DNA of 64,000 bases from contig JANYFL010000034.1 in the NCBI GenBank assembly GCA_025362735.1, forward strand, positions 3,061 to 67,060. The letters are read 5' to 3'. A program made the translations under genes and the position numbers. The notes under the pieces are model-generated. The model saw only the letters and a program-made list of their open reading frames with translations. It was not told the DNA's origin and did not search any database. Of the stretch, positions 1 through 29,089 are shown one piece after another. Position 1 is the stretch's first letter, and every line of letters starts with the position of its first letter. Source of the DNA: Betaproteobacteria bacterium. GTDB lineage: Bacteria; Pseudomonadota; Gammaproteobacteria; Burkholderiales; Burkholderiaceae_D.

Positions 1-690
1 ACCTTCGTCGATTATGAAGAGTGGGGTCGCGAGTATCGCCTGAGCGCGGTCAACACCGTGGTCGATGTGCATACGCGCGTCTCCGATTTGTATAGCAGTC
101 CACACAACCAGATTCGTGAGCAACTGCGTTTGACCATCGAGATCGTCAAGGAGCGTCAGGAAAGCGAACTCATCAACAACAAGGAATACGGTCTGCTCAG
201 TCACGTCGTTCCATCGCAGAAAGTACAGCCGCGCACTGGCGCGCCGACGCCGGATGATCTGGATGAACTGCTGACCAAGGTCTGGAAAGAACCTGGATTT
301 TTCCTCGCGCATCCGCTGGCGATTGCAGCCTTCGGACGTGAGTGCACGCGCCGTGGTGTGCCACCGCCCACCATCTCGTTGTTCGGTTCGCAGTTCCTCA
401 CTTGGCGCGGTATTCCACTGATTCCTTCGGACAAACTGGCCGTTGAAAACGGCAAGACCAATATCCTGCTGCTACGTACCGGCGAAGCGCGACAAGGCGT
501 TGTTGGTCTGTTCCAGCCCAAGCTGCCGGGCGAACAAAGCATGGGACTGTCGGTGCGCTTCATGGGCATCAACCACAAGGCCATCGCTTCCTATCTGGTC
601 TCGCTCTACTGCTCGCTGGCGGCACTGACGCCGGATGCCATCGCAGCGCTCGAAAACGTCGAAGTGGGCAAGTACCATGTCTATAGCTAA
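1..690 (+). CDS. Family 2A encapsulin shell protein, C-terminal ~229 aa (5' end lies outside the window)
   Basis: Frame 1 is open from nt 1 (TFVDYEEWGREYRLSAVNTV...) to TAA at 688-690, so track ORF 58..690 is only the Met-initiated part. It is followed, with a 14-nt overlap, by a cysteine desulfurase carrying a long disordered N-terminal extension, which is the diagnostic cargo of Family 2A encapsulins. The shell assignment rests on this context and on recall of the family. No HMM search was run. Confidence 0.65.
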   Translation, partial: TFVDYEEWGREYRLSAVNTVVDVHTRVSDLYSSPHNQIREQLRLTIEIVKERQESELINNKEYGLLSHVVPSQKVQPRTGAPTPDDLDELLTKVWKEPGFFLAHPLAIAAFGRECTRRGVPPPTISLFGSQFLTWRGIPLIPSDKLAVENGKTNILLLRTGEARQGVVGLFQPKLPGEQSMGLSVRFMGINHKAIASYLVSLYCSLAALTPDAIAALENVEVGKYHVYS

Positions 691-2566
691 TCTTCCCGGT
701 ACCGACAGCCTGCCCGATCCTGCACAACTGGGGGTAGCTGGAGGATTGCCCGAGGCGAACTGGCTCGAAGCATTGGCGAACCAGTTTTTTCAGGCTGTGC
801 CCGGGTCTACAACAAGCACGTCCGGACTTGCCGGTCTGCATGGTGCCAGCACCTCCAGTCCAGCCAGTGCCATTCCCGCCGGATTGCCAGCAGGAACGAC
901 GTCGATTGCCGGTGCCGGGTTACCCGTGAGTCCCGCTGCACTGCCATCCACTGCGCTCAATCCTTTGCCTGATCTGGCCTCAACCTCGGCGACTCCACCG
1001 ATTGTCGGATACGAGACGATTAATCCGGGCTGGCCTGATCAAGGCGGGTTGACCTTACCATCCGTCTTCCCTTTTTCAGCAACGACAGGCATTCCCGCTA
1101 CGCCGTTTGACGGGCTGCTGAATGATGCTGATCTGCTCGGCCTGCTTGAAGCCAGTGTCGCTTCGGTGCCTGCACTGTCTCTTGCAAGCGCTCATGCACC
1201 TGCTCATGTACCCACTCATTTACCTGTTTCATCAACCGGGCTGGTTTCGAGTACGCCATCCTTTTATTTTCTCGAACATGCGCACTCTTCAAATGAGTCT
1301 GTGCAGATTCCAGGCCGCAGTGCGGTGGTTCCAGGTATTGCATCGAGCCAGGCTCCGTTTGATGTGAACCTGATCCGGCGCGACTTTCCGATTCTGCAAG
1401 AGCGCGTGAATGGCCGCCAGCTGATCTGGCTCGACAACGCAGCGACGACGCAAAAACCACAGTCAGTAATTGATCGCGTCTCGTATTTCTACGAACATGA
1501 AAACTCGAACATCCATCGCGCCGCGCATGAACTGGCAGCGCGTGCTACTGATGCTTACGAAGGCGCCCGCGAGAAGGTGCGTGGTTTTCTGAATGCGCGT
1601 TCGGTCAATGAGATCGTGTTCGTGCGTGGCACGACCGAGGCGATCAATCTGGTTGCAAAGAGCTGGGGTGGTCAGAATCTGAAAGAGGGCGACGAGATCA
1701 TCGTCAGTCATCTCGAACATCACGCCAACATCGTGCCCTGGCAGCAGATCGCGGCAGAGAAGGGTGCAAAGATTCGGGTGATCCCGGTCGATGACACCGG
1801 TCAGATTCTGCTGGATGCTTACGAGAAACTGTTCAACTCGCGCACAAAGCTGGTGTCGTTCACCCAAGTGTCGAATGCGCTTGGAACGGTCACTCCTGCA
1901 GCAGAGATCATCGGTATCGCACACAAGCACGGGGTCAAAGTCCTGCTCGACGGCGCACAGTCGGTCTCACACATGCGCGTGGATTTGCAGGCACTGAACC
2001 CGGACTTTTTCGTGTTCTCAGGCCACAAGGTCTTTGGTCCGACCGGTATCGGCGTGCTCTATGGCCGCGAAGAATTGTTGAACAGCATGCCACCGTGGCA
2101 AGGCGGTGGCAACATGATCAAGGATGTGAGCTTCGAGCACACTGAGTATCATGCTGCGCCGGGTCGCTTTGAAGCAGGCACTGGCAATATTGCTGACGCA
2201 GTGGGTCTGGGAGCGGCCATAGATTATGTGACGCGCCTGGGCATGGACAACATCGCGTTGTATGAGCACGGTCTGCTTGAATACGCGACCCATCATCTGC
2301 GCCAGATTCCGGGGCTGCGGTTGATTGGCACGGCGGCAGATAAGGCCAGTGTGCTGTCCTTTGTGCTCGAAGGCCACAAGACCGAAGAAGTGGGTTCCGC
2401 GTTAAACCAGGACGGTATCGCCGTACGTTCCGGGCATCATTGCGCTCAGCCCATCCTGCGGCGCTTTGGGCTTGAAGCGACGGTGCGGCCGTCGCTGGCG
2501 TTCTACAACACTTGCGCCGAAATCGATGCGCTGGTCGCGTCCATTCGTCGTATTCAACGCAAGTAA
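677..2566 (+). CDS. Cysteine desulfurase (SufS/group II type), encapsulin-cargo form with a disordered N-terminal domain
   Basis: The C-terminal ~400 aa carry SufS hallmarks: HHANIVPW, the PLP-lysine motif SGHKVFGPTGIG and the catalytic-Cys loop RSGHHCAQP. The N-terminal ~227 aa are P/S/A/T/G/L-rich low complexity. The track ORF starts at 635, but ATG 677 (MSIANLPG...) is preferred. Confidence 0.85.
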   Translation: MSIANLPGTDSLPDPAQLGVAGGLPEANWLEALANQFFQAVPGSTTSTSGLAGLHGASTSSPASAIPAGLPAGTTSIAGAGLPVSPAALPSTALNPLPDLASTSATPPIVGYETINPGWPDQGGLTLPSVFPFSATTGIPATPFDGLLNDADLLGLLEASVASVPALSLASAHAPAHVPTHLPVSSTGLVSSTPSFYFLEHAHSSNESVQIPGRSAVVPGIASSQAPFDVNLIRRDFPILQERVNGRQLIWLDNAATTQKPQSVIDRVSYFYEHENSNIHRAAHELAARATDAYEGAREKVRGFLNARSVNEIVFVRGTTEAINLVAKSWGGQNLKEGDEIIVSHLEHHANIVPWQQIAAEKGAKIRVIPVDDTGQILLDAYEKLFNSRTKLVSFTQVSNALGTVTPAAEIIGIAHKHGVKVLLDGAQSVSHMRVDLQALNPDFFVFSGHKVFGPTGIGVLYGREELLNSMPPWQGGGNMIKDVSFEHTEYHAAPGRFEAGTGNIADAVGLGAAIDYVTRLGMDNIALYEHGLLEYATHHLRQIPGLRLIGTAADKASVLSFVLEGHKTEEVGSALNQDGIAVRSGHHCAQPILRRFGLEATVRPSLAFYNTCAEIDALVASIRRIQRK

Positions 2567-2576
2567 AGCAGCGCAA

Positions 2577-2858
2577 ATGAAAGCCATGCTCGTCGGTGCC
2601 GATCAGCTTGGGAATATTCCCAAGGCGCTGTCCGAGTATGGAATTCAGATCAGCCGCCATCTGACGGGACGCGACACCCTGCATCAGCGCCGTGGCGTCA
2701 ATGTGCCCAATGGCACGGACCTGCTGATCCTGTTTACGGATTTCCTGGGTCACAACGTCATGCGTAATTTTCGTGAAGCCGCAGAAAGCGAAGGTGTACG
2801 CGTGATCTGCTGCAAGCGTTCCATTACGAGCATTCGACAGTCGCTTGATCTGCAGTAG
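2577..2858 (+). CDS. DUF2325 domain protein (93 aa)
   Basis: MKAMLVGADQLGNIPKALSEYGIQISRHLTGR...DLLILFTDFLGHNVMRNFREAAESEGVRVICCKRSITSIRQSL fits the DUF2325 pattern as I recall it. The internal ATG at 2577 of track ORF 2466..2858 lies 10 nt after the desulfurase stop. Confidence 0.6.
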   Translation: MKAMLVGADQLGNIPKALSEYGIQISRHLTGRDTLHQRRGVNVPNGTDLLILFTDFLGHNVMRNFREAAESEGVRVICCKRSITSIRQSLDLQ

Positions 2859-2996
2859 TGTCACGCCTGTTGCATTGAGAACATGGCTTGTTGCGTGTTC
2901 AGCAGTGCTTGTGTCGAATCAAACAGGGGCTATAACGCCCCAAAAAATAAGTATTGATTTTCAGTCGCTTAGCTCGGACTGCCGCATGATTTTTCC

Positions 2997-3078: not shown

Positions 3079-3711
3079 ATGAACTTCGCGCAACATCAAC
3101 GAAATCCACAGCGACATTTGACCGGAATAGCAATCGTCGCTTTATTTCACATCGTCCTTATTTACGCACTTGCCAATGGTCTGGCTCGCAAGGTTGTAGA
3201 GGTCATCAGTGATCCGCTTCAAGTTAAACTGATTGAGGAGGTGAGAACAGAACCGCCGCCGCGCGAAGTCGTGCCGCCACCTCAGTTCAAGGCGCCACCG
3301 CCTCCATTTATACCACCTCCTGAAGTACAGGTTACGGCACCACCGCAGACACCCGTCATTGCGGCAGTGGTTACAACGCCACCATCCGCTCCAGCTCCGG
3401 TACGTGCACCTGAACCACAGCAAATTGCATCGGCTCCACAAGTGGTCAATGTTGGCGTGGTCTGCCCCAACCATCTTGATGTGCGGGGCAGCGTACCTTA
3501 TCCGCCCCAGGCTTTGCGTCTGCATATGTCGGGCGATGTACTGGTTGAATTCACGGTTGCCGAGTCCGGTCAGATCAAGGATGTCAGCATTACCAAATCC
3601 ACCAATCAAATATTCAATGCGGTCGCGAGCAATGCTGTTAGTCGCTTTAATTGCTCCAGTCCCGGACGTGAAGTAAGAGTGCGAGTACCGTTCGAATTCA
3701 AGGTTGGTTGA
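3079..3711 (+). CDS. tonB: Energy transducer TonB
   Basis: It has an N-terminal membrane anchor (GIAIVALFHIVLIYALA), a Pro-rich spacer (EPPPREVVPPPQFKAPPPPFIPPPEVQ) and a C-terminal TonB domain (YPPQALRLHMSGDVLVEFTV...). Confidence 0.85.
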   Translation: MNFAQHQRNPQRHLTGIAIVALFHIVLIYALANGLARKVVEVISDPLQVKLIEEVRTEPPPREVVPPPQFKAPPPPFIPPPEVQVTAPPQTPVIAAVVTTPPSAPAPVRAPEPQQIASAPQVVNVGVVCPNHLDVRGSVPYPPQALRLHMSGDVLVEFTVAESGQIKDVSITKSTNQIFNAVASNAVSRFNCSSPGREVRVRVPFEFKVG

Positions 3712-3931
3712 TCAAACTGTTGTTCTCTCAACAACGCTGTTGCGTATCTGTTGTTATATGAACAACCCCATTTTTTAAAGCAAATGTCAGTACGCTAGAT
3801 TAATAAATTTGTTTCTTATGCATCAAGGCTTTAGAGGTAACAAGATGAAATAAAAAGCTAAGGTAATGACTGGCATGGTCTCTGCGATATGAATGAGTTC
3901 AAACATTGATTGACTCTATTCAAGGGAACAC

Positions 3932-6553
3932 ATGTCTCCAAGACGTTTTAGCACCACCATTCGCACACAATTTGAATTAAGGCCTGTCGCAAGCAGTCTG
4001 CAAGAGCTTTTTAACCTGCATCACAAATCGTTGATTGCCGGAGCAAGTATCATTGCTTCAATCCTTGCTGCGGGAGGGAGTCCATCGGCGATTGCTCAAA
4101 GTACTTCCAGGACAGAAGCCTCGGTCGATCTGGAAAAGGTCGTCGTCTCCTCGCGCAACCGTGAAGAATTCGCGCAGGATGTACCAATCCCGGTTTCAGT
4201 GATTAGTGGACAAACGCTGGATCGCGAAGGCGTTGTTGCAATTGAAGACCTCGTCAAGAAAGCTCCTGGCCTGGAAGCCACGACGCCCAATTCGCGCCGT
4301 ACCGGAATTTCAATTCGTGGCATCGGCAAGTCCGCTGGTAATGACGCGCTTGAAGCATCAATGGGTGTGATTGTTGACAATGTCTTTTTGTCACACCCGG
4401 GCATGAGCTATCAAGACTTTACCGATCTGGATCGGGTGGAAGTCCTGCGTGGGCCGCAAGGCACGCTGCTGGGCAAGAATACAACGATCGGGGCGATCAA
4501 CTATGTCAGCAAATTGCCCAGCTTTACGCCTGAAGCCTCGGCCAATGTTTTCTTCAGTTCAGAGGCATTGGATTCACGCAGCACACGTACGGTCAATGCT
4601 TCCATTTCGAATGCGATCGTCGATGACCTTTTGGCCTATCGCGTTTCATTTTTTGTCGACAAGCAGGATGGTGACATAGAGAACGTGAACGCAGAAGGTG
4701 GCCGGACGCATGAAAAAAATCGCTCGGGCGGGCGACTGCAATTTTTGCTGACGCCGAATAAGGATCTCTCACTTCGACTCAACGTGGATTCTTCAGAAAC
4801 CAATGAGCGCAGCAATACCAAACCGGTCATTCGCGTCTTGACCAATTTTGATGATGCGTCGAACTCATCGCGTGTGACAACGGCAGGGATTAACGGCATA
4901 CCGACGACGCAGGCCCAAGTTACAGCACAGAATGCGGGCAAGAACACCTATGTCAGCATTTTCAATCGCGCATATTTTGGTGGGTATAGTCCGATTGTGG
5001 GATCTTCGATAAAAGAAGATCTGAATCTCAATGTTCCTGTCGTCACCAAGAATCAAGGAGGCGTTGCCGAATTGAACTGGGACGTGGCCGGGCTGAGACT
5101 GACCTCGATCACAGGCGTGCGCACGTATGCATTTGATGCCAAAAATGATGGCGATCAGACCAAATTTGCAGTGAGCCGGAATGGTACGCGCGTCGATGCG
5201 CAGCAGGTGTCGCAGGAATTTCGTCTGACTTCACTCGTCAATGAGAAATTTGATTATCAGGTTGGTTTGTTCTATATGCATAGCTGGAATACGTCGAACA
5301 GTCGCACACTTTATGGCAACGATGGTGGTGCGTACAGTGCGAAAAACGGTGATTACAACGTTCTCTACAATACGGCGAGTGGCCGGCAGTTGCTCCAGTC
5401 ATCATTGAACAATGTCTATATTCAAAACGTTACAACACCTGACAACAAGAGTGCCGCAGCGTTTGGCCAGGTGAACTGGCACTGGACGGACGCCGCGACA
5501 CTGACATTGGGCCTGCGTGATACCTACGAAAAAAAGACCAGTACGGCGAGCAAACAAGCCTCTTTTCTTGATGGCAGTGCGCTCAACAATCTGACCACAC
5601 TGGGTAATAGTATCGGCGCCAGTCCGCTCGAAATTGCTGCTGCAAATAGTACGCGTAACGGTCAGGTTGGCACGACTTACACAAACCAGCAAGGAAAGCC
5701 GATCAATGATAGTGCGCTTGGCTGGCTGTTGAGCCCGAGCTACAAGTTGAATGAAAATGTTTTGCTCTATGCATCTGCAGCATCGGGCGAGAAATCTGGC
5801 TCTGTACAGTTTCTCAGTAACGGTACACCGAATGACGTTGCGCCGGAAAAAGTATTGGACTTTGAGACTGGTTTTAAAAGTCTGCTACTGGATCGTTCAC
5901 TCCTGCTCAATGTGAATTTTTATCAGACCACACTCAAAGATTATCAACAAACCACCAGTGTGTTTGATCCAGCAACGACAGCGCTGCGCAACGACGGTAC
6001 GTTGTACTACCAGTCCATTCTCGGCAACATTCCGAAGATTCGCGCACGCGGTGTCGAGGTCGATGGCACCTATATCGTCAATCGCAATCTGAGTCTGAGT
6101 TTTGGCGGCGCCCTCAACAATGCCAAGTATCTGGATTGGCATACTGCAACTTGCCCGAGTGAACTGAATGTCTCTTCATCGACCGTGACTTGTGACAACA
6201 CTGGCAAACAAGTAGTTGCTGCACCCAGGTTCATCGGTATAGCCGGTCTCGATTACAAGCTGGGATTGAGTGGAGGCTACGCTGGCCACCTGTGGCTCAA
6301 TAATGTCTATCGGACCAAGCAGAATTTTGATGCGACTCTCTCGCGTTATGGCATACAAAAAGCTTATTCCATAACGGATATTGGTCTGGGCTTGATCGCC
6401 CAGCAGGGAAAGTTCGAGATTGACCTGGTTGCCAAGAATGCGTTCGACAAGCAGTTCACGACCAGTATCAATGTCAGCAGCGATGGTCAGATTGCCTATG
6501 ACGGTATCGGCCCGCGTCGCTGGATTGGGCTGGTTTTACACGCAAGACTTTGA
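3932..6553 (+). CDS. TonB-dependent receptor (873 aa)
   Basis: A plug region (DLEKVVVSS..., VEVLRGPQGTLLGKNTTIGAINYV) is followed by a long beta-barrel-type sequence. Confidence 0.9.
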   Translation: MSPRRFSTTIRTQFELRPVASSLQELFNLHHKSLIAGASIIASILAAGGSPSAIAQSTSRTEASVDLEKVVVSSRNREEFAQDVPIPVSVISGQTLDREGVVAIEDLVKKAPGLEATTPNSRRTGISIRGIGKSAGNDALEASMGVIVDNVFLSHPGMSYQDFTDLDRVEVLRGPQGTLLGKNTTIGAINYVSKLPSFTPEASANVFFSSEALDSRSTRTVNASISNAIVDDLLAYRVSFFVDKQDGDIENVNAEGGRTHEKNRSGGRLQFLLTPNKDLSLRLNVDSSETNERSNTKPVIRVLTNFDDASNSSRVTTAGINGIPTTQAQVTAQNAGKNTYVSIFNRAYFGGYSPIVGSSIKEDLNLNVPVVTKNQGGVAELNWDVAGLRLTSITGVRTYAFDAKNDGDQTKFAVSRNGTRVDAQQVSQEFRLTSLVNEKFDYQVGLFYMHSWNTSNSRTLYGNDGGAYSAKNGDYNVLYNTASGRQLLQSSLNNVYIQNVTTPDNKSAAAFGQVNWHWTDAATLTLGLRDTYEKKTSTASKQASFLDGSALNNLTTLGNSIGASPLEIAAANSTRNGQVGTTYTNQQGKPINDSALGWLLSPSYKLNENVLLYASAASGEKSGSVQFLSNGTPNDVAPEKVLDFETGFKSLLLDRSLLLNVNFYQTTLKDYQQTTSVFDPATTALRNDGTLYYQSILGNIPKIRARGVEVDGTYIVNRNLSLSFGGALNNAKYLDWHTATCPSELNVSSSTVTCDNTGKQVVAAPRFIGIAGLDYKLGLSGGYAGHLWLNNVYRTKQNFDATLSRYGIQKAYSITDIGLGLIAQQGKFEIDLVAKNAFDKQFTTSINVSSDGQIAYDGIGPRRWIGLVLHARL

Positions 6554-6615
6554 TTCCCTCTCTCTTACCTAACTCAATTAATGCAGCAAGAACTCTTTAA
6601 CCAAAAGGATTACAA

Positions 6616-7146
6616 ATGATGAAACTAAAATCGAATATGGCCACTTGTGCGGCAGTTACTTTGTCCGCTTTATCCATGGCAGGATTCGCACTGGCACAAA
6701 CTCCAACCGCCGCGCAGACGCCAGTCCCTGCAGCGCGCGGTCCTGCGGTCAACCTTGCTCTCGAAGCCGCACAGACAGCGCTGGCTACGTGCCAGGCCAA
6801 CGGTTATAAAGTGGGCGTGAGTGTTGTGGACTCAGCTGGGGTTGTACGTGTTGCGTTGGCCTCGGACGGCGCCCCGCAACGTGCGGTCGAATCGGGTAAT
6901 GGCAAGGCCTTTACCGTTATCACCTACAAGACATCATCTGCTGAGGTTGCAAAGAAGGCTGAAAAAGATCCAGACCTGACCGCGAAGCTGAATGCGGATC
7001 CGAAGCAACGCGCGCGTGCAGGCGCTTTGCCACTCCTGGTTGCCGGTGAAGTGATTGGTGCCATCGGCGTTGGCGGTGCACCGGGTGGTGACAAGGATGA
7101 GGCTTGCGCTGCTGCTGGAATCGACAAGATCAAGGACAGACTTTGA
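6616..7146 (+). CDS. GlcG/HbpS-like (DUF336) heme-binding protein, exported
   Basis: It has a signal peptide (..SMAGFALAQ) and the conserved C-terminal GGxP motif region GALPLLVAGEVIGAIGVGGAPGGDKDEACA, which is typical of GlcG/HbpS. Confidence 0.75.
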   Translation: MMKLKSNMATCAAVTLSALSMAGFALAQTPTAAQTPVPAARGPAVNLALEAAQTALATCQANGYKVGVSVVDSAGVVRVALASDGAPQRAVESGNGKAFTVITYKTSSAEVAKKAEKDPDLTAKLNADPKQRARAGALPLLVAGEVIGAIGVGGAPGGDKDEACAAAGIDKIKDRL

Positions 7147-7163
7147 AATAAGTAGAGGGCAGT

Positions 7164-7196
7164 AAAAAGCCCGCTTAGTCAGCGGGCTTTTTTTAT
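7164..7196. terminator. Bidirectional rho-independent terminator between convergent genes
   Basis: The sequence is AAAAAGCCCGCT-TAGTC-AGCGGGCTTTTTTT: a GC-rich 8-bp stem flanked by an A-run and a T-run. Confidence 0.7.
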
Positions 7197-7240
7197 TTAA
7201 TCGAGGCGCGAGTGATGCTGATCTTATCGAGGGGCATCTT

Positions 7241-9346
7241 TTAAAACTGCGTACTCAATGTCATACGGAAAGTGCGTGGTTCGACCGGATGAAAGTGAAG
7301 ATCATCCACACCCGACAAGGACTCACCCGGTAAGCGGGAGGTGTAGTAATAGTCAATATCACTGGCCTTGCGGTTAAACAGGTTGAAGATATCGAGTGAA
7401 ACTTTCCAGTCCTGATTGATCTTATAACCTATCCGTGCATAGGCGAGAGAAGTCGATTTGGATCGCTGACTATTGTCTTCAATCAGTGGACGCGGGCCGA
7501 AGTAGCGCACCTGAAACTGCCCAAACCACGGGCCAAACTCGGTCAGGGTAACGCCCAAAGACGCAACCTTATTGACTGCACCCGGCACATAATTGCCGAC
7601 TGGATCGTCTTCAGTAAAGTGCGCCTGCGAAAGTGCCAGGTCGAAGTCGACCAGCAACCAGGGCCGCACAATATAGTGGTTGTTCCATTCAATCCCGGTG
7701 CGCTTGCTGGGGCGATTGGGTTCGGTTTCGGCCGCGTCCCCGGAGAAGACGAGTTCCGAATCCAGTTTGAGCTGCCACAGTGCCACCGAACTTTGCAGAC
7801 CGGGAATGATTTCGGTACGCGCACCGAATTCAAAACCTCTGGTCTTGACCAACAGGCTGGCTGGGTCAATCGGTGTCAGTGACCTGGGAGAAACCGTCGA
7901 AGTCACACCACGTGCATCGTTACTGTGAAAGCTCTCACCATAGTTGGCGAACAACTCGGTCTTCTTCCACGGCCCGAGAATCAGTGAGAGCTTGGGTGAG
8001 GTGATGCTGGCGTCCTTGTGGCCGGAATTGCCAGGGACATTACTTTCGACATCGACTTTCATCAGGTCGTGACGAATACCAGCAATACTGCGCAACCAGG
8101 GTTGCCACTGCAGGGTATTTTCGAAATAGAGACCGGCACTGGTTTGTCGCACGGGCCCTTCCTGGACGGTGTTGAGGCGTACACGATCAAGCGTGTCATA
8201 CAAGCCTAGTTGACTGATCCGATCCTGCCTTACCTGTATGCCAAACTTGTTGATCGTCTCCATCCCGGAAAGTTTGCCCATCCATGACTGGCTGGTGTCG
8301 AAACCAAACACACGGCGGCGCTCAGCCTGCTCAACCTGATCACCGTTGACCGGATCGTTCAGGAAGTAAGTGAAGTCGCCAAAAAGATTCAGGCGTGACT
8401 GGATCGCATACGCTTTCAATTCGAACACGCCATCTTCTTGAACATATTGCGTAGCGAAGGAAAGGCTGTAGCGGGCCGTATCGCCGCCATCGGTCGGGCT
8501 GATCGTGCCAAAACGATCAATCAGGCCCTGATCCACTGCTCTCTGCGGAATCTGGTCGGTTGCATTCCACTTGGCTTGATAGGCCATTGCTGTAATGGTT
8601 GTTGGGTGATCACTAGAGCCGAAGCTGTAGCGCAGCAAGCCGTTAAGTTTGTGAAAATGTTCGGGAACATCCCATGGCCCGTTGTTGTGAACAGCTTCCA
8701 GTCCATACAGCAGGTTACCGGTAGGCAAAACCGTAGAGTTCACCACCACAACGCGGCCATATTCGCCTTCACCCACGGTCAAAGAGGCAATGCCCTTGGG
8801 CAGAGTATTGGCAAAGTTGATCCGTGCCGAACCCGCAGAGGAAAAATCGCCCTCCCCAGCGTAATACGGGCCTTTCTTGTAGTCGATGCGGCTGACCACT
8901 TCGGGGATCATGAAATTGATGTCGCTATACCCAATGCCATGTGCATGAGAGGGCATGTTGACCGGCATGCCATCAATGAAAGTAGCGAAGTCAGTGCCAT
9001 GATCGAGATTGAAACCGCGCAGGAAATACTGGTTGGCTTTGCCGTCACCGCTGTGCTGGGTCACAATCAAGCCCGGCACGAATTCGAGAATTTCGCCCGC
9101 GCGTAATACGGGACGACTGGCAATCAACTGTGCCGTCACGCTGCCTTGGCTGGCAGCATCAGAAGTGCCGATTGCATTCAGATAATTTCCCTGAATTTCA
9201 ATTTTTTTAAGAGTCTCGAAAGACTGTGACGCGGTTGCATTTTTATTCTGTGCCAACAGTTGCGGTGTATCCGTCTCAGCAGCGCGAGCGCCAAAAAGGA
9301 TGAAACCCGTACCCAGCAATGTGGCCAGTTTGGTCAGTTGAAACAT
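7241..9346 (-). CDS. TonB-dependent receptor (701 aa)
   Basis: It has a signal peptide, plug motifs (EFVPGLIVTQHSGDGKANQYFLRGFNLDHGTDF) and a C-terminal ...RTFRMTLSTQF with a terminal Phe. Confidence 0.9.
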   Translation of the reverse strand: MFQLTKLATLLGTGFILFGARAAETDTPQLLAQNKNATASQSFETLKKIEIQGNYLNAIGTSDAASQGSVTAQLIASRPVLRAGEILEFVPGLIVTQHSGDGKANQYFLRGFNLDHGTDFATFIDGMPVNMPSHAHGIGYSDINFMIPEVVSRIDYKKGPYYAGEGDFSSAGSARINFANTLPKGIASLTVGEGEYGRVVVVNSTVLPTGNLLYGLEAVHNNGPWDVPEHFHKLNGLLRYSFGSSDHPTTITAMAYQAKWNATDQIPQRAVDQGLIDRFGTISPTDGGDTARYSLSFATQYVQEDGVFELKAYAIQSRLNLFGDFTYFLNDPVNGDQVEQAERRRVFGFDTSQSWMGKLSGMETINKFGIQVRQDRISQLGLYDTLDRVRLNTVQEGPVRQTSAGLYFENTLQWQPWLRSIAGIRHDLMKVDVESNVPGNSGHKDASITSPKLSLILGPWKKTELFANYGESFHSNDARGVTSTVSPRSLTPIDPASLLVKTRGFEFGARTEIIPGLQSSVALWQLKLDSELVFSGDAAETEPNRPSKRTGIEWNNHYIVRPWLLVDFDLALSQAHFTEDDPVGNYVPGAVNKVASLGVTLTEFGPWFGQFQVRYFGPRPLIEDNSQRSKSTSLAYARIGYKINQDWKVSLDIFNLFNRKASDIDYYYTSRLPGESLSGVDDLHFHPVEPRTFRMTLSTQF

Positions 9347-9490
9347 GGGTTTTCTTTATTTTTAATAACTCAAGCAGCCGCTTTAGAAAGCGCCACACTT
9401 TTATTGTTTGATAAAAGCTTGATATCAAAGCGATGAAACGCCACTAAAGCGAGCGGCGCGAACTGCAGCGCTGAATCAATGAATGGATAC

Positions 9491-10102
9491 TCACTTTTTA
9501 GCCGTTGCTTTTTTGTTTTCCGGATATACCGGGATTTTCTGGCCGGGATACCAGAACTGCAGGTGGCAGGCTTCGCAAACTCCATCAATATTCCCGCCTA
9601 CGGTCACGAGCGCTTCCGCATTTTTGGCATCAATCGCAGCAAGTGCTTGTGTCGTCACGTCATGCAAGGCATGCGCATGGGCGATAAATGCAGGTCTGTT
9701 GGCATCGATCAGTTTTTGGATTTCAATCGGTTCCAGCTCGTCTTTCACCTCTGATTTCGTACCAGGGGGGGCAACCTGGCGGCCCTCAATTAACAGCAGA
9801 TTGGTCGCTTCAATCAGCGTAAGGGCATGGCGCCGGACCGCTTTCCACTCTTCATCCGTATGGGGCTGATTTTCGACTAGACCCTTCTTGCTGGTTTCTG
9901 TACTGACTGCATTCCAGACGCCATCGGCGGAAGGATCGATCACTGCATCCATCAGTTCCTTGATGCTGGCCGTTGGTCTGAACGGTGTTTCTTGAGCCGG
10001 GTTTGCAGCGGTGGTGGCAGACGTTTTCTGACCGCAACCACTAACACTGGAAAGAATGAGCAAGACGATCCCGGCTGATAAAGCCGATGTTCTGATTTTC
10101 AT
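9491..10102 (-). CDS. Lipoprotein with a class II (cytochrome c'-like) heme c domain
   Basis: It has a lipobox (LSSVSGC) and a predicted helical body. A single CxxCH (CEACH) lies ~20 aa from the C-terminus, the class II cytochrome c arrangement. Confidence 0.6.
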   Translation of the reverse strand: MKIRTSALSAGIVLLILSSVSGCGQKTSATTAANPAQETPFRPTASIKELMDAVIDPSADGVWNAVSTETSKKGLVENQPHTDEEWKAVRRHALTLIEATNLLLIEGRQVAPPGTKSEVKDELEPIEIQKLIDANRPAFIAHAHALHDVTTQALAAIDAKNAEALVTVGGNIDGVCEACHLQFWYPGQKIPVYPENKKATAKK

Positions 10103-10120
10103 GTTGATTCCGATACTGAT

Positions 10121-10597
10121 TTAAACGACAAAGCCGATGGCACGGCCTGCCAGTCCGACGCCAAACCACAGGCTGAGCGAGAGCAGGGCTGTGGTTCTGG
10201 CAAGAACGGGGTTTGGCTTTTCCAGCGTGGTCACTTTTTTCAGTAAAGTGAACTGCAAGGTAACTGCGAGAGCCAGCAGGGTCATTTTTGGCCAGAACGC
10301 GCTATTCATGTCGTATCTCAACAAACCGGAAAGAAAAATGGTCAGTCCGGTGGACACTGCCACGAACAAGCCAGTCAATACAAAAGGTCTGGCCGACTGC
10401 GCTACTTCCGGCACGCTTTGTCGCCGCAAACCTACGCCCAGCAGCCTCAGATTAATGAGCAATACGCCGGTCAACAAAAGGAGCAGGCCGAGGACATGAA
10501 ACACTTCGACGATTTCGATGACACGGTGATCGGACTCACGCAGAAAATAGAGGGGCGGCGTTTGAGACAGCCAGTGAAATAGTTCAGCTTTGGTCAT
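10121..10597 (-). CDS. 4-TM integral membrane protein of unknown function (DUF6644-like, paralog B)
   Basis: It has four hydrophobic segments. The TM1 motif VEVFHVLGLLLLLTGVLLINLRLLG is shared with the adjacent gene. The start was chosen at internal ATG 10597 (MTKAELFHWL...). Confidence 0.55.
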   Translation of the reverse strand: MTKAELFHWLSQTPPLYFLRESDHRVIEIVEVFHVLGLLLLLTGVLLINLRLLGVGLRRQSVPEVAQSARPFVLTGLFVAVSTGLTIFLSGLLRYDMNSAFWPKMTLLALAVTLQFTLLKKVTTLEKPNPVLARTTALLSLSLWFGVGLAGRAIGFVV

Positions 10598-10626
10598 GGC
10601 AATTGGTTTCAGCTCAAGAGTAGTGA

Positions 10627-11124
10627 TTAAAAGTGAGGGTAATAGGCGTAGAGACGTCCCAGCACAATGGTGGTCGTCCAGAAGCTCAACGATACCCATG
10701 CGGCGGCTCGAACGCCGATGGGGAAAGTTTCACGCTGACCCCATTCCGCCACACGCCGCCCCAGACGAAATTCGAACAGCAGGGCGTTGATACCGGCCAC
10801 CACAATCAGCAATGCTTTCAGACGAAAGATGTTGCTCTCGTAGAGTGTGGCTGCGACCGGCCAGAACAGCAGGCCACCGGAGATGAAGGTCAGAATAAAA
10901 CCAGCGACCAGCCAGGGCCGTAACTGATCCAGAATATCAGCCACCGGTACGCCCCGCTGATAGACCCCAATCAGCCGCAGATCGGTCAGCAAGACAAGAC
11001 CAACCGAGAGCGCCAGCCCCAGCAGATGGATTCCCTCAACAAATGGATACAGGTAGCGTGATCCCAGAAAGGCTTCACCGAGTTCGGTGTTTTCCAGCCA
11101 TTGGCATAGTTCGAACAAAGTCAT
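10627..11124 (-). CDS. 4-TM integral membrane protein of unknown function (DUF6644-like, paralog A)
   Basis: MTLFELCQWLENTELG...VEGIHLLGLALSVGLVLLTDLRLIG is followed by further hydrophobic segments. It is a paralog of 10121..10597. Confidence 0.6.
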   Translation of the reverse strand: MTLFELCQWLENTELGEAFLGSRYLYPFVEGIHLLGLALSVGLVLLTDLRLIGVYQRGVPVADILDQLRPWLVAGFILTFISGGLLFWPVAATLYESNIFRLKALLIVVAGINALLFEFRLGRRVAEWGQRETFPIGVRAAAWVSLSFWTTTIVLGRLYAYYPHF

Positions 11125-11144
11125 AATTTATCCCTCGCTGTGAT

Positions 11145-14003
11145 TTAAAGTTTGCCGCTGAAGACAAAGCCAAACCAACGGGGTAGACCCGGGGTCGTAC
11201 TGTTCCAGCTTTGTGCAACGTTGTAATTGGTATTGAGCAAGTTCTTTACGAGGAAGTTAAAGTCGTAAAGCCGGTCGCGGCGACCCAGTCCGATCGAAAA
11301 ATCAACCAGACCATAGGCATTGACCCAGGCATAACTGGACTGGGCGGCATCCGAGTTGAAACGGCTCTTGTAGTTGTAGTTCAGATTGGTATGGAAGACC
11401 TTGTCGTTCAGTACCGGCAGGCTGTAATCGACCGACAGATTGGCGGTGAACCTCGGTGCGTTCGCCAGGGTCTGGCCCTTGGCGTCATAGAACCTGACCG
11501 GCAGATTGCCCTTTTCGACGGGATTAGACAGCAGGATCGAATCCTTGTAATAGGCATCGTTAAAGGAGCTGGCCAGTCGCACCGTGGTATGTTGGATGCC
11601 AGTATACGAAGCATCGATTTCCAGACCGCGGATTTCCACCAGGGGCGCGTTGCCGGTAATGCTGGTGTAAGTCGGGATGCCCGTGTTGGCCGTCAGGACA
11701 GGGTCAAGGATGTTGACCGATTGCTGGAAGTTTTTCAGTCGATCCAGAAAGACATCGGCATTCAGGGTCAAGGTATTGTTGAACTGCGAGGTCTTCAAAC
11801 CCAGCTCGAATGCGTTGGATGTTTCCGGCAAGGTCAAGAAGGAACGGGGTACGCCATTGAGTGTTCCGCTGATCTGCGAGATGCCTGCCTTGGCCCCATG
11901 CTGCCATGATCCATAGGTCGTCAGGCTGTCATTGAGCTTGTAGCTCAGACTGATATTCCCGGTGGTCAGGTTGCCCTGATAGGGTTGCGCCGCGGTGGTA
12001 TTGAACAGGCCGTTATAGGCTTGTGCGGCGCGAATGGCCTGGGCCTGTGTGACCTGGGTTTTTTGCGCGGCAGTCAGGCCGGCATAGGCCGCGCCCGGGA
12101 TAGCGGTAATCGGCGCGCCAAAATATTGATTCGCCAATCGATCTGCCGCGCTTAACTGAGTAGAATTATTGGCGGCCTGCAGACCCGCCAGATTGGCAGC
12201 CGAGGTAAAGCCGCCGTATGCAGCCGGGTTGAGCAGTGAACCGAAGCCGCTGTCTGAAATCAGTTTGTTGACCGAGGTACGCCGATCTTCATTGGTGTAG
12301 CGCAGACCAGTGGTCAGGGTTAGCGGCTCGCTCAGATGCCAATCGGCCTGACCGTAAACCGCGGCACTTTTGTTGTCGGTGTAGGTTGTGCTGGTCGCAT
12401 AAACGTGATCAAGCGAGTCTTTCAGCAATGCCCGACCGCTACCAAAATCGCTGGTGTTCGGATCAAGCGGGTTATATTGCGCCGTCGTCGCAAACCAGGC
12501 CCCCGCATCGGAACCGTAAAAGGTACGCGTATTCGCATCCGACTTGGTATGAATCCAGAACAGACCGCCGGTGTAATCGACGAAGCCACCTGGATTGGAA
12601 GTCAGACGCAACTCTTGACTGACCTGCTTGTAATGCACAAACAAACCTGCATCGCGCGTGATATCGAATGGCGTACCGTCGTCATTGGCCGCTTGAAAGA
12701 AATTGTTCTTGAAAGCGGTAATCGAGGTCAAAAGAAAATTAGGCAGCTTCCAGTTCAATTGAGCCGAGGCACCCTTGTTGCCGTTCAGGATCCCGCGGTT
12801 ATCGTCTTCATTGACGGGATCACTGTAGTACCTTGAAAGGCTGTAACTGGAGACCGCGGTGAAATAGCGCCGCTGCAAAGCGACCTGAGCGCCCGAGGTC
12901 AGCGGGATGATGCTGCCGTCGGCATAAGTCAAAGGTTGTGCAAATCGGAACGTAAGGCCGTTGACCCATTCGATGCCCTTGGGTTTGAAGTCTGCGCTGA
13001 ACAGGGCACTGAAATCCTTGTTCGGCGTCAGCAGGAACTGGACGCGTCCATAGCTGCGGTCGGTATTGGTATAGCTGGTGCGATCCTCAATGGGCTTGAA
13101 CTGGTTCATGTAGAAGCCTTCTTGCTGGTTTCTGTAGAACGTGCCGCGCCATGCCAATACATCATCCACTACCGCCCCGCCGAATGCTGCCTGCGTAATC
13201 AGGGCATTTTGCTGCCCGAAAGTGATCGAGGCATTGGCTTCCGGTGTGAATGTTGGCTTGTTGGTCGTAATGTTGATTGTGCCCATGCTGGTGTTCTTGC
13301 CACCAGTGGAACCTTGCGGGCCACGGGTTACGTCAATGGTGGCGACATCGATATAGTCGGAACCACTGGCGAGTGCAACGTATGCATAGGGCACGCCATC
13401 CACATTCACGCCCAGACTCGGGTCGATCTGTTCCGTACTGCCAGCGCTGACGCCGCGAATCGACAGGCTGCCAGTCTTGGGATTGCCATAGTTCCACTGG
13501 ACGTTGCCAATGCGTTTGAGAATATCCGTTACGTTGAGGGCTCCGGTCTTTTCCAGTTCGGCACCGGTGACGACCGAAATCGATTTGGGGACATCCTGAA
13601 GTTGAACCAGCGGGTTCGGCGCTCGAATGACGACCTTCTCCAGACTCTGTTGCGCCTCTGCTTGCGAAGCAGTGGCAGCCTGATTGGTGGTGCTGGTGGT
13701 TTGCGATCCGGCCACAGCATTCGCATTGGTCGTGGTTGTCTGTATTCCAGTCTGTCCGCTTTGCTGGGCATTGATCTGTAGCTGCAGCTTGTCCACGATT
13801 TGTTTCAGGCGCGCGTTTTCGCTTTGCAAATCTGCAAAGGCCTTGTCATCTGCCGCATGGACATTCATCGCGGTACCAATTGCGGTCGCGGCAAACAAGG
13901 CGGCCATCACACTGACCGACAATTTGCTGCGGCGACCGATCACGGCAAGAGGCTGTTGCAGCATGTTCAAGCTGGTTGAATTCATACTGGTTCGATTAAT
14001 CAT
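11145..14003 (-). CDS. TonB-dependent receptor (952 aa) with an unusual N-terminal coiled-coil/low-complexity extension
   Basis: It has plug motifs (ISVVTGAELEK..., DVTRGPQGSTGGKNTSMGTINI), a long barrel and a C-terminal ...RWFGFVFSGKL. Confidence 0.9.
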   Translation of the reverse strand: MINRTSMNSTSLNMLQQPLAVIGRRSKLSVSVMAALFAATAIGTAMNVHAADDKAFADLQSENARLKQIVDKLQLQINAQQSGQTGIQTTTTNANAVAGSQTTSTTNQAATASQAEAQQSLEKVVIRAPNPLVQLQDVPKSISVVTGAELEKTGALNVTDILKRIGNVQWNYGNPKTGSLSIRGVSAGSTEQIDPSLGVNVDGVPYAYVALASGSDYIDVATIDVTRGPQGSTGGKNTSMGTINITTNKPTFTPEANASITFGQQNALITQAAFGGAVVDDVLAWRGTFYRNQQEGFYMNQFKPIEDRTSYTNTDRSYGRVQFLLTPNKDFSALFSADFKPKGIEWVNGLTFRFAQPLTYADGSIIPLTSGAQVALQRRYFTAVSSYSLSRYYSDPVNEDDNRGILNGNKGASAQLNWKLPNFLLTSITAFKNNFFQAANDDGTPFDITRDAGLFVHYKQVSQELRLTSNPGGFVDYTGGLFWIHTKSDANTRTFYGSDAGAWFATTAQYNPLDPNTSDFGSGRALLKDSLDHVYATSTTYTDNKSAAVYGQADWHLSEPLTLTTGLRYTNEDRRTSVNKLISDSGFGSLLNPAAYGGFTSAANLAGLQAANNSTQLSAADRLANQYFGAPITAIPGAAYAGLTAAQKTQVTQAQAIRAAQAYNGLFNTTAAQPYQGNLTTGNISLSYKLNDSLTTYGSWQHGAKAGISQISGTLNGVPRSFLTLPETSNAFELGLKTSQFNNTLTLNADVFLDRLKNFQQSVNILDPVLTANTGIPTYTSITGNAPLVEIRGLEIDASYTGIQHTTVRLASSFNDAYYKDSILLSNPVEKGNLPVRFYDAKGQTLANAPRFTANLSVDYSLPVLNDKVFHTNLNYNYKSRFNSDAAQSSYAWVNAYGLVDFSIGLGRRDRLYDFNFLVKNLLNTNYNVAQSWNSTTPGLPRWFGFVFSGKL

Positions 14004-14198: not shown

Positions 14199-15170
14199 CT
14201 ATTTGGCAGCACGGCCAAAGCCGCCGTTGTTCTCGACGCAGATCCGTTCATAAGCCTCGTGAAGAAGTGGCTTGCCCGGATTGTTCGCCACGGCCACTTC
14301 GTAGTGCCAGCCGCCCGGCTTGTCTGCTTCGGTGTAACGGCGAGCAGGAATGGTGGCGGTCCAGGGTCGCGTATAAACGGGCGGGTCGTCAAAGGTGGCG
14401 ACGTAGTTGTAGCGCTTGTTGTCGTTATCGAAGATGTAGCGCTCGACGACGTGAACATTGTCGCTGGCAAATGCGCCTTCACGGCCAAAAAGGGCCTTCG
14501 CATTGTTATTGCTCACATCGACGACCAGGGTATTGCCTTCCCAGTGACCGCGTGAATCGGCATTCCATAATTTGATGTTTTCCGGAAGATGCGGCTTGCC
14601 ATCCAGATGAATGACCCGGCTGCCCGAGCCGAAGATGAATAAGACATAGTTTGGAAACTGACGAATCTCGTAACCGTGCCAGTAGAACGACTTCGGTACA
14701 CCAGCTGGTGCGCAACGGGCCAGCGGCTCGATATGTTCCGGCTTGCTGGGTTTGTTGAAGTTGGCTTTGAAGTCCTGCTGCGCAGCCAGAGCCCAAGGCT
14801 GGAAAGGAATTTCACCGCTGGCTGGATCGCTCACGCGGCTCGGTGCGCGTTCTTCACGCGGCCCCAATTTAATTGGCCGTGCAGGATCGTTGGTGCCGCC
14901 CTGTGGATCAGTGAAATTGTTGTGGTTGGCGATGGTGTTGGACCAGAAGCCTGATACATCCGGCTGTCCGTCCGGCAGATACTTGCCAGTCCATTTTCCG
15001 GAAAGAATGACAGGTACCGTTTTGGATATGGAGATACCACCACCTTGCGGTGCAGCTTGCTGTCTTTGCTGCCCTTGTTGGGCAAAACTTGCAGCGCTGG
15101 GGGCAAGCACTAGCGCGATAAGCAGCAGACCTGCGCTGTGAAACTTGTGCTGACTAAATTTGCTTTTCAT
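14199..15170 (-). CDS. Secreted protein of unknown function (323 aa), paralog of 15258..16187
   Basis: It has a signal peptide (LLLIALVLAPSAASFAQQ). It shares blocks with its neighbour: GQPDVSGFW, RVIHLDGKPH, DSRGHWEGNTLVVDVSN, VHVVERY and DDPPVYTRPWT. Confidence 0.7.
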   Translation of the reverse strand: MKSKFSQHKFHSAGLLLIALVLAPSAASFAQQGQQRQQAAPQGGGISISKTVPVILSGKWTGKYLPDGQPDVSGFWSNTIANHNNFTDPQGGTNDPARPIKLGPREERAPSRVSDPASGEIPFQPWALAAQQDFKANFNKPSKPEHIEPLARCAPAGVPKSFYWHGYEIRQFPNYVLFIFGSGSRVIHLDGKPHLPENIKLWNADSRGHWEGNTLVVDVSNNNAKALFGREGAFASDNVHVVERYIFDNDNKRYNYVATFDDPPVYTRPWTATIPARRYTEADKPGGWHYEVAVANNPGKPLLHEAYERICVENNGGFGRAAK

Positions 15171-15257: not shown

Positions 15258-16187
15258 TCAAGGCTTGGGCGGGTAGTACTGGTCATAGTCCAGCGTGAAG
15301 CCGTAGTTCTCGATCAACTGGAAGTTCTTTTCGCGATGACGATAAAGAATCACGCTGAGGGTCCAGGGGTGGCTGTAGACCTGAGGGTCATCAAGCGTGG
15401 CCTTGTATTCGATCGTATTGGCGTCGAGGAATTTCCAGCGTTCGACGACATGCAGGGCATCGCTGTGGAAATTACCGGCCCGATCCAGCCAGGTCTCGTC
15501 ATTGAAATTGGTGACGTCGACGACCAGCGTATCGCCTTCCCAATGTCCGCGCGAGTCACCGAGCCATAACTGGTTCGTCCCCTCCTGTTCCGGATCAGCA
15601 TGCAAAGTGCCATTGGTGTGGATGGTGCGTACCGACTGGCCGAACTCGAACAGCAGTGTCAGGTCACGGGGGCGCTGAAAAATCTGGAATGGCTCCGGAT
15701 AGTAGATGCCGCGCGGGGTGCCGAGGGTGTACCACTTCAAACGCGGATCAGCGGTCAGCCGTGCTTCAAAGTTTTTCTTTTTCTGCTCCAGCGCCTTGGG
15801 CAAATAGGGAATGAAATTCCCGTCAATGACACCGGCACTCGGCGGCGCATCTTTGCGAGTCGAATGGGGTTCGAGGTCATAGTCAGCAGCACTGGTGGTC
15901 TGCCAGATACCGGAGAAATCCGGTTTGCCATTCAGGCGCGGAATCTTGGCTTCGACTTTGCTTTCCGTCGTGGCCGTGGCCGCGCTTGCGCTCAAGAAGG
16001 CGCAGGGTGCCGTAACCAATAAGGTCGTCACAATGAGGCGTAAGCCTAGGTGCCAAAAACGTGATGGAGTTGACGGGCTCGCGTACGCCCCGTCTCCACT
16101 GAAGGATGGGGTTGTTGTGATGAGTGTGGTGTTCAAGGAATTCTCTCTTTGCGTGCATGAGCATGCCGGGGCGGATCTCCCCGGCAT
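15258..16187 (-). CDS. Secreted protein of unknown function (up to 309 aa), paralog of 14199..15170
   Basis: It carries the blocks GKPDFSGIW, RTIHTNGTLH, DSRGHWEGDTLVVDVTN, LHVVERW and DDPQVYSHPWT. The true start is probably downstream of ATG 16187, because a GC hairpin occupies 16164-16184 and the hydrophobic signal segment begins near LGLRLIVTTLLV. Confidence 0.65.
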   Translation of the reverse strand: MPGRSAPACSCTQRENSLNTTLITTTPSFSGDGAYASPSTPSRFWHLGLRLIVTTLLVTAPCAFLSASAATATTESKVEAKIPRLNGKPDFSGIWQTTSAADYDLEPHSTRKDAPPSAGVIDGNFIPYLPKALEQKKKNFEARLTADPRLKWYTLGTPRGIYYPEPFQIFQRPRDLTLLFEFGQSVRTIHTNGTLHADPEQEGTNQLWLGDSRGHWEGDTLVVDVTNFNDETWLDRAGNFHSDALHVVERWKFLDANTIEYKATLDDPQVYSHPWTLSVILYRHREKNFQLIENYGFTLDYDQYYPPKP

Positions 16188-25220: not shown

Positions 25221-27824
<2,604 letters not shown>

Positions 27825-28762: not shown

Positions 28763-29089
28763 GCTTTGCTCCTGATTATGTAGGTGAAATCTTGCAGCTG
28801 GCGATTTAGAAGCAAAATATGGGCCATAAATTTTATTTAAATTAAAACAATGACTTGCAAATAATATATCGCAAGATTGTGGTTAAGTGTTAAAGAAATC
28901 GACAAATATTATGTGTAGTCATAAGTCCGACGCGATTTTCCATAATGCAGTTGCTCCACCTTTTTGTACAACCTATGCTGCAAGGCAATAGCTGATGTCT
29001 ATAAATTTAATAAGATAATTAAAATTGATTTATTGATTGTTATTTTTAATAATGTACTTAATTTCCAATCTCAACTCAGAGGTAAAAAT

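Follow-up and report, generated by a model that had tools for sequence, protein, structure and literature searches.

A predicted Family 2A cysteine-desulfurase encapsulin operon in a Burkholderiales-type betaproteobacterium

At the very beginning of a 64,000-nucleotide stretch of betaproteobacterial DNA (contig JANYFL010000034.1; this whole stretch is referred to below as the window), two overlapping open reading frames (ORFs) encode a shell protein and a cysteine desulfurase, which almost certainly belong to a chromosomal Family 2A (SrpI-type) cysteine-desulfurase encapsulin operon of the AT-Enc-CD type in a Burkholderiales-type betaproteobacterium. The genes are ordered as follows: a serine O-acetyltransferase-like gene, which lies upstream of the window; the shell gene, which is cut by the window edge; the desulfurase gene; and a gene for a DUF2325 protein. 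What was observed directly comprises the identity and architecture of the genes, the catalytic residues and loading motifs, the order of the operon, and a conserved linkage and overlap of the shell and desulfurase genes, and the sequence holds nothing that argues against Family 2A membership. The features of the shell and cargo genes, in window coordinates, are:

1–690, plus strand: Family 2A encapsulin shell gene, 3' part (residues 77–305 of 305); PF19307, NF041162, identity to 6x8m
677–690, plus strand: overlap of shell stop and cargo start, 14 nucleotides (ATGTCTATAGCTAA), read directly from the sequence
677–2566, plus strand: Family 2A encapsulin cargo, cysteine desulfurase (629 amino acids); NF041166, TIGR01979, 8kg1
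677–1357, plus strand: cargo-loading domain, N-terminal 227 amino acids, low complexity, predicted disordered; composition, and no homology to solved desulfurases before residue 218
743–805, plus strand: loading motif 1 (residues 23–43), GLPEANWLEALANQFFQAVPG; consensus GLPD..L..LANQFF.ALPG across 115 homologues
1109–1150, plus strand: loading-domain motif 2 (residues 145–158), DGLLNDADLLGLLE; consensus GLP...EL..LL across 115 homologues
1256–1273, plus strand: loading-domain motif 3 (residues 194–199), PSFYFL; 60–99% column conservation
1358–2563, plus strand: SufS-type (group II) desulfurase domain dependent on pyridoxal phosphate (PLP); PF00266, with Lys451 and Cys589 verified in the sequence

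Identification of the shell gene

The first ORF lies in frame 1 of the plus strand and runs, open, from nucleotide 1 to a TAA at 688–690 (229 codons). The fragment it encodes (1–687) matches the SrpI-like Pfam family PF19307 (E=2e-99) and scores 426 bits against NF041162, the NCBIfam model for Family 2A shells, for which the cut-off is 380 bits. Aligned with residues 76–303 of the SrpI cryo-electron microscopy structure 6x8m, which has the HK97 fold, it shows 180 identities in 228 positions (79%) and no gaps; it also matches the Acinetobacter (8t6r) and mycobacterial (8wol, 8won, 9ksl) shells, with E values of 1e-105 to 1e-115. By these matches the first ORF is identified as a Family 2A (SrpI-type) encapsulin shell gene, which bears out an earlier note, made from the letters of the window, that had read an upstream ORF open to nucleotide 1 as an encapsulin shell and had proposed a profile search of nucleotides 1–690 as a check. 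The HK97 fold is predicted from the identity to 6x8m, and at 79% identity to SrpI, self-assembly into an icosahedral T=1 shell of ~24 nm would be expected.

The earlier note had also proposed extending the contig upstream to recover the 5' end of the gene. This end was found on L001, an 11-kb metagenome contig of a sequencing-run assembly that contains the exact cargo sequence. Wherever the two overlap, L001 and the window are identical, and nucleotide 1 of the window corresponds to nucleotide 2102 of L001. The first 76 shell codons, which lie upstream of the window, occupy L001:1874–2101, and the intact gene (L001:1874–2791) encodes 305 amino acids, with an AAGGAG Shine-Dalgarno sequence 7 nucleotides before its ATG. 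The full protein scores 524 bits against NF041162 and spans the model from end to end (positions 1–295 of 295). The N-terminal arm extension is present, as residues 11–76 of the L001 shell align with the first 66 positions of the 2A model.

The cargo desulfurase and its loading domain

The product of the second ORF scores 901.5 bits (cut-off 800) against NF041166 (f2_encap_cargo1), which describes the family 2A encapsulin nanocompartment cargo protein cysteine desulfurase. It also scores 566 bits (cut-off 475) against TIGR01979, the model of the SufS subfamily, and matches Pfam Aminotran_5 (PF00266) over residues 250–619 (E=1.6e-146). Among solved structures, the cysteine desulfurase 8kg1 matches it best (E=1.6e-186, residues 218–627). 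Since both genes exceed curated family cut-offs, the shell and cargo calls are not chance matches. The PLP lysine, Lys451 (codon 2027–2029), is found in SGHKVFGPTGIG, which begins at residue 448, and the catalytic cysteine, Cys589 (codon 2441–2443), in RSGHHCAQP, which begins at residue 584. The claims that this protein has a normal SufS-type catalytic domain with both residues, and that it is a Family 2A encapsulin cargo, thus agree with TIGR01979, PF00266 and the two residues themselves in the first case, and with the NF041166 score and the loading motifs in the second. The ORF at 677–2566 was likewise as described, except in its length, which is 629 amino acids; the 630 given earlier counts the stop codon.

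We aligned 115 full-length cargo homologues and scored the conservation of each column. An alternative in-frame start at ATG 635, which would give a protein of 643 amino acids, was rejected, as the homologues start at the position of ATG 677. We take ATG 677 as the cargo start because its methionine is kept in ~97% of the 115 homologues and because the same register recurs in 71 of 77 related loci (see below).

Homology to solved SufS-type enzymes begins at residues 218–233, and that to Aminotran_5 at residue 250, which places the end of an N-terminal extension at ~227 amino acids. Residues 1–227 consist to 59% of P, S, A, T and G and to 6% of charged residues, as compared with 32% and 21%, respectively, in the catalytic domain. 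The extension had been described as ~227 amino acids of P/S/A/T/G-rich, apparently disordered sequence, and both its composition and the onset of homology uphold this description, disorder being judged here by composition and absent homology. No similarity between the loading domains of different genomes was found by tblastn, as would be expected for a disordered region. In the alignment of the 115 homologues, three conserved islands, motifs 1 to 3 of the list above, stand within an otherwise unalignable loading domain. Two motifs, 'LARLANEFFS' and 'AASPYYFLDG', have been reported in the loading domains of SrpI-associated desulfurases (PMC8049743); motif 1, which includes LEALANQFF at residues 30–38, is the first of these, and motif 3 is the second. 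For a related system, Benisch et al. described five short, partly conserved loading-domain motifs and several separate contacts with the inner shell surface (PMC10836720). Judging by the distance from the shell stop to the catalytic domain, the loading domains of the related loci described below would have a median length of 202 amino acids.

Conserved linkage and overlap of the shell and cargo genes

To place the pair among its relatives, one genome per species was scanned for shell homologues. At least 558 shell relatives were found, and the best 80 of them (78–87% identical), mostly from Methylophilaceae, Methylococcaceae, Nitrosomonas, Rhodocyclales and Burkholderiales, were compared. In 77 of these 80 loci the shell gene is immediately followed by the desulfurase catalytic domain, and in the other three the contig ends first; an acetyltransferase is present in 73 of the 80. 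Starting from the cargo instead, look-ups of homologues found by protein search (L083–L086) revealed a SrpI-like gene immediately upstream in four of four cases, with the same overlap. The question raised in the earlier note, whether desulfurases with such an N-terminal extension are linked to shell genes, can thus be answered in the affirmative for all 77 loci that reach far enough and for the four look-ups. Because the shell models match and the shell–desulfurase linkage holds, neither of the findings named beforehand as speaking against the proposal, a first ORF with no encapsulin match or extended desulfurases unlinked to shell genes, was obtained.

The 14-nucleotide overlap that had been noted between the first ORF and the desulfurase start was found at 677–690. 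An identical overlap register, of the pattern ATGnnnnnnnnnTRA at the shell/cargo junction, is present in 71 of the 77 related loci, across Beta- and Gammaproteobacteria, as well as in L083–L086. Since this register is kept, the final four codons of the shell gene and the opening four of the cargo gene are jointly constrained. The conserved overlap suggests translational coupling of the cargo to the shell; the 14 nucleotides are a fixed feature of these operons, and coupling could set the ratio of shell to cargo.

Operon type and comparison with known systems

On L001, a gene for a 329-amino-acid hexapeptide acetyltransferase, similar to serine O-acetyltransferases, lies 208 nucleotides upstream of the shell gene (L001:676–1665). 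Its product scores 168 bits against the cysE model TIGR01172, below the cut-off of 210, and 162 bits against NF041874, the EpsC-type serine acetyltransferase model, above the cut-off of 150. Four operon types have been distinguished among 1462 desulfurase encapsulin operons, AT-Enc-CD being one of them (Benisch et al. 2024, PMC10836720), and by its gene content the present operon is assigned to this published type: an acetyltransferase-like gene, a shell gene and a desulfurase gene, with no rhodanese gene in the 1.9 kb upstream of the shell that L001 covers.

The next gene upstream of the acetyltransferase gene on L001 (L001:72–650) encodes a member of the Ser_hydrolase family (PF06821). Genes of this family recur beside the operon in several lineages (L083:8005–8640; L003, ~9499–9999, minus strand; L007, ~2434–2949, minus strand); the gene lies upstream of the acetyltransferase in the lineage of the window and downstream of the cargo in an Aquabacterium metagenome-assembled genome (MAG).

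Three characterized systems can be compared with this locus. The SrpI/CyD system of Synechococcus elongatus PCC 7942 (6x8m; Nichols et al. 2021, PMC8049743) has a shell that is 79% identical over 228 window residues, a shell gene that adjoins the cargo gene, and a cargo in which a disordered domain of ~225 amino acids with LARLANEFFS-like and AASPYYFLDG-like motifs is followed by a SufS-type domain. It differs in that the present host is a betaproteobacterium, the present locus lies among housekeeping genes (ClpB, isocitrate lyase, ComEC), the loading domains cannot be aligned beyond short motifs, and an acetyltransferase gene lies upstream and a DUF2325 gene downstream here. The system of Acinetobacter baumannii 118362 (8t6r; Benisch et al. 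2024, PMC10836720) shares a closely related shell (E=8e-115), a proteobacterial host and the combination of acetyltransferase, shell and desulfurase; its operon, however, has four genes and starts with a rhodanese gene, whereas here a Ser_hydrolase-family gene lies upstream on L001 and a DUF2325 gene follows the cargo. Finally, the Mmp1/Enc-CD system of Mycobacterium smegmatis (8wol, 8won, 8kg1; Tang et al. 2024, PMC11659603) supplies the best solved match for the catalytic domain (8kg1), has a homologous shell (E ~1e-105) and loads its cargo through an N-terminal disordered region, but it differs in its actinobacterial host and its lower shell identity.

Packaging, an activity raised by encapsulation, and internal sulfur are known from no systems other than those of S. 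elongatus, Acinetobacter and M. smegmatis. Encapsulation makes the desulfurase more active and more stable, and the operon reacts when sulfur is limiting (PMC10836720, PMC8049743, PMC11659603); the Acinetobacter system has been shown to store elemental sulfur, to have a fivefold pore of 6 Å and to bind the loading domain at multiple sites (PMC10836720). The earlier note had stated that few such compartments have been studied experimentally, which is only partly true; the cyanobacterial, Acinetobacter and mycobacterial systems have structures (PMC8049743, PMC10836720, PMC11659603).

By close homology to these systems, 60 copies of the 305-amino-acid HK97-fold shell protein would form the ~24-nm T=1 icosahedron, into which the desulfurase would be packaged via LEALANQFF, DLLGLLE and PSFYFL of its 227-amino-acid N-terminal domain, these binding the inner shell surface. 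L-cysteine would enter by fivefold pores of ~6 Å, and the PLP enzyme, acting through Lys451 and Cys589, would convert it to alanine and a persulfide. The sulfur may then collect inside as elemental sulfur or polysulfide, beyond the reach of cytosolic (glutathione-sized) reductants. The adjoining acetyltransferase would feed cysteine synthesis, and expression is probably responsive to sulfur supply.

The DUF2325 gene and the end of the transcription unit

Two further features follow the cargo gene:

2577–2858, plus strand: DUF2325 gene (93 amino acids), 10 nucleotides after the cargo stop; PF10087, E=1e-11
2926–2941, no strand assigned: GC-rich hairpin GGGGC-TATAAC-GCCCC after the DUF2325 gene; terminator scan

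The DUF2325 gene is probably the last gene of the transcription unit, and the terminator scan detected no terminator-like site between it and the cargo gene. In general, the sites returned by the promoter and terminator scans were no more numerous than in shuffled sequence, and the limits of the unit are therefore taken from gene spacing alone. The hairpin at 2926–2941 is terminator-like on the minus strand only, as on the plus strand it is followed by an A-run and not by a T-run; it may weakly indicate the end of the unit.

The closest relative of the cargo (L087, 77% identical) is followed by a DUF2325 gene in the same order (L087:1782–2072), the two DUF2325 proteins being 66% identical. With a hidden Markov model built from 50 DUF2325 homologues, 22 of the 80 related loci were found to have a copy no farther than 6 kb from the shell gene, in at least four gene arrangements. 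In 19 of these 22, which are clusters of sulfate-transporter and encapsulin genes, the DUF2325 gene comes directly behind a gene for a sulfate-binding-protein-like product, at a distance of no more than 127 nucleotides. In Nitrosomonas oligotropha, for example, the order is porin, sbp, DUF2325, EAL, shell, desulfurase, cysT, cysW, cysA and acetyltransferase. DUF2325 genes were also noted at L054:4630–4974 and at L030:9102–9461 (minus strand). A universal partnership was rejected, as there is no DUF2325 gene by the operon in Aquabacterium, Undibacterium and two other relatives. Close DUF2325 homologues in Denitromonas and Aquitalea stand in unrelated gene contexts.

The DUF2325 protein of the window is without the Cys-rich C-terminal tail found in most of its homologues, and it has no sequence match in the PDB. 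A structure model made from the single sequence was poor, with a predicted local distance difference test score (pLDDT) of 56, whereas an alignment-based AlphaFold2 model reached a pLDDT of 88 and shows a four-strand flavodoxin/CheY-like fold. A Foldseek search with the model returned only generic flavodoxin/receiver-like folds (E values of 3e-3 or above) and no specific PDB relative. The neighbourhood table of Nichols et al. does not list DUF2325; in anammox Family 1 encapsulin loci, it has been named as a possible secondary cargo (PMC6934571). The DUF2325 protein might serve betaproteobacterial sulfur-assimilation and desulfurase-encapsulin clusters as an accessory so far unrecognised, for instance as a small redox, sulfur-relay or regulatory protein that acts with the compartment where the operon has no rhodanese, but we hold this to be distinctly unlikely, and we regard the association of DUF2325 with the encapsulin operon as a small unreported lead, not a finding.

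Weighing the assignment against alternatives

Several points weigh against a Family 2A desulfurase compartment as proposed here. The window is without the first 76 shell codons, the intact gene having been taken from an identical contig of another assembly (L001) and not from the window's own record. No rhodanese gene lies beside the operon on L001, on which 1.9 kb upstream of the shell gene are covered; the proposed partner for sulfur remobilisation is therefore absent here, as it is in about half of the known operons. Function is assigned throughout by homology, so that assembly, loading, sulfur storage and regulation would all be as in the characterized homologues, and in the literature the physiological role of the family, be it storage, a starvation response or protection against oxidation, is still debated.

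This last point bears on the alternative that survives best, namely that the locus is a genuine Family 2A system which, under sulfur starvation or oxidative stress, serves chiefly to protect or activate its desulfurase rather than to store sulfur over the long term, the sulfur being passed to a partner such as the DUF2325 protein. Encapsulation does raise the activity of the enzyme, and sulfur limitation induces the operon ~10-fold in Acinetobacter and induces it in S. elongatus as well (PMC10836720, PMC8049743). Moreover, the mycobacterial enzyme is shielded from oxidation by encapsulation (PMC11659603), a Campylobacter DUF2325 gene is strongly induced by oxidative stress (PMC9426514), and here the DUF2325 gene starts only 10 nucleotides after the cargo gene. 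Conversely, direct evidence shows that the shells of the Acinetobacter and mycobacterial systems contain elemental sulfur deposits, nothing indicates that the DUF2325 protein contacts the shell or carries sulfur, and the copy in the window has no Cys-rich tail. On balance, we consider a chiefly protective or activating role possible but rather improbable.

A prophage origin fares far worse. As the HK97 fold is common to encapsulin shells and phage capsids, and the catalytic domain exceeds the general SufS cut-off (TIGR01979, 566 versus 475 bits), the first ORF could in principle be the remnant of an HK97-type prophage capsid that lies by chance beside a free SufS enzyme for iron–sulfur cluster assembly. 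However, there are no flanking phage genes, the neighbours being serine acetyltransferase, DUF2325, TonB and TonB-dependent receptor genes; the shell passes a curated encapsulin equivalog and not a capsid model; the annotated neighbours, which do not extend to small ORFs, include no identified suf gene; the desulfurase has a 227-amino-acid loading domain with both family motifs; and the shell–desulfurase pair is kept in 77 of 77 genomes, the 14-nucleotide overlap in 71 of 77. We regard a prophage remnant as refuted as far as sequence can go, its probability being negligible.

Equally hard to credit is a Family 2B encapsulin, that is, a terpenoid-linked system whose shell has a cyclic nucleotide monophosphate (cNMP)-binding domain: the 2B model NF041163 does match, the fragment scoring 355 bits, which is under its cut-off of 400, and the full gene 415 bits, yet these matches cover only model positions 212–449, the shared shell part, whereas the full 305-amino-acid protein fills the 2A model end to end (524 bits), and the neighbour of the shell gene encodes a desulfurase, not a terpene or polyprenyl synthase. 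Because the 2B model matches only in the C-terminal shell part, as tested on L001, which is identical over the overlap, the shell has no cNMP-binding domain.

The Family 2A operon is of an already known kind, standard and catalogued, and an annotation pipeline based on NCBIfam would be expected to name it automatically. It matters little in itself: the compartment already has curated models, a demonstrated function and structures solved in three sets, and this further copy comes from the phylum group in which such compartments are commonest. Its practical value lies in a correct annotation and in a betaproteobacterial example of the three-gene operon type that has no rhodanese; what is new is limited to the DUF2325 association and the fixed, near-universal 14-nucleotide overlap, both of which may interest workers on encapsulins or sulfur assimilation.

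Host and genomic neighbourhood

The window (G+C ~53%) is chromosomal in character, encoding ClpB, isocitrate lyase, dihydrolipoyl dehydrogenase, ComEC, MoeA and a resistance–nodulation–division efflux system. The host is an uncultured betaproteobacterium of the Burkholderiales type and as such is not unusual for desulfurase encapsulins. Most of the 1462 catalogued operons fall in four phyla that include the Proteobacteria, and Burkholderia cepacia is among the carriers (PMC10836720). That the earlier note knew of no such compartment in this kind of host is consequently a weak ground for interest, as the Proteobacteria are rich in these operons, B. cepacia is a carrier and the Acinetobacter system has been solved and characterized (PMC10836720).

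The isocitrate lyase of the window shares a 90% cluster with proteins of Massilia, Telluria and Duganella. ClpB (25221–27824) has no relative above 87% in the protein collection; of its first named relatives, it is 83% identical to that of a Burkholderiaceae MAG, 82% to that of Derxia, and ~80% to those of Ralstonia, Azoarcus and Trinickia. The shell is 79% identical to cyanobacterial SrpI, while the ClpB of its host is only 79–83% identical to those of named genera of its own order. As far as these sequences indicate, this contrast points to a very strong constraint on the shell or to its lateral spread, together with a poorly sampled host lineage. The best genome matches of the shell (85–87% identical) show no synteny with the window downstream, so that the representative genomes do not include the host species, and ClpB and isocitrate lyase place the host to the level of order only.

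An uptake cluster comes right after the operon (window 3079–14003) and also contains a DUF6644 protein. Its genes include:

3079–3711: TonB
3932–6553: TonB-dependent receptor
6616–7146: HbpS-like protein of the haem-degrading type
7241–9346 and 11145–14003, minus strand: two more receptors

The TonB, TonB-dependent receptor and HbpS-like genes were rejected as members of the encapsulin system, since none is syntenic in the 80 related loci; nor does any other part of the cluster show synteny with other encapsulin loci.

A scan of the window against Rfam returned no RNA family at the gathering score, and hence no rRNA or tRNA by which to place the host. Four of its ORFs, spanning 308–537 amino acids, are without an assigned family: those at 14199–15170 and 15258–16187 (both minus strand) have no match in NCBIfam or Pfam, the one at 34458–36074 (minus strand) has none in NCBIfam, the one library scanned, and the one at 54454–56016 (minus strand) has none in Pfam, again the one library scanned. 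Two further genes lie just beyond ClpB:

27932–28762, minus strand: NIDO-domain protein with a PEP-CTERM sorting signal
28964–29839, plus strand: peroxiredoxin–glutaredoxin fusion (Redoxin and Glutaredoxin domains)

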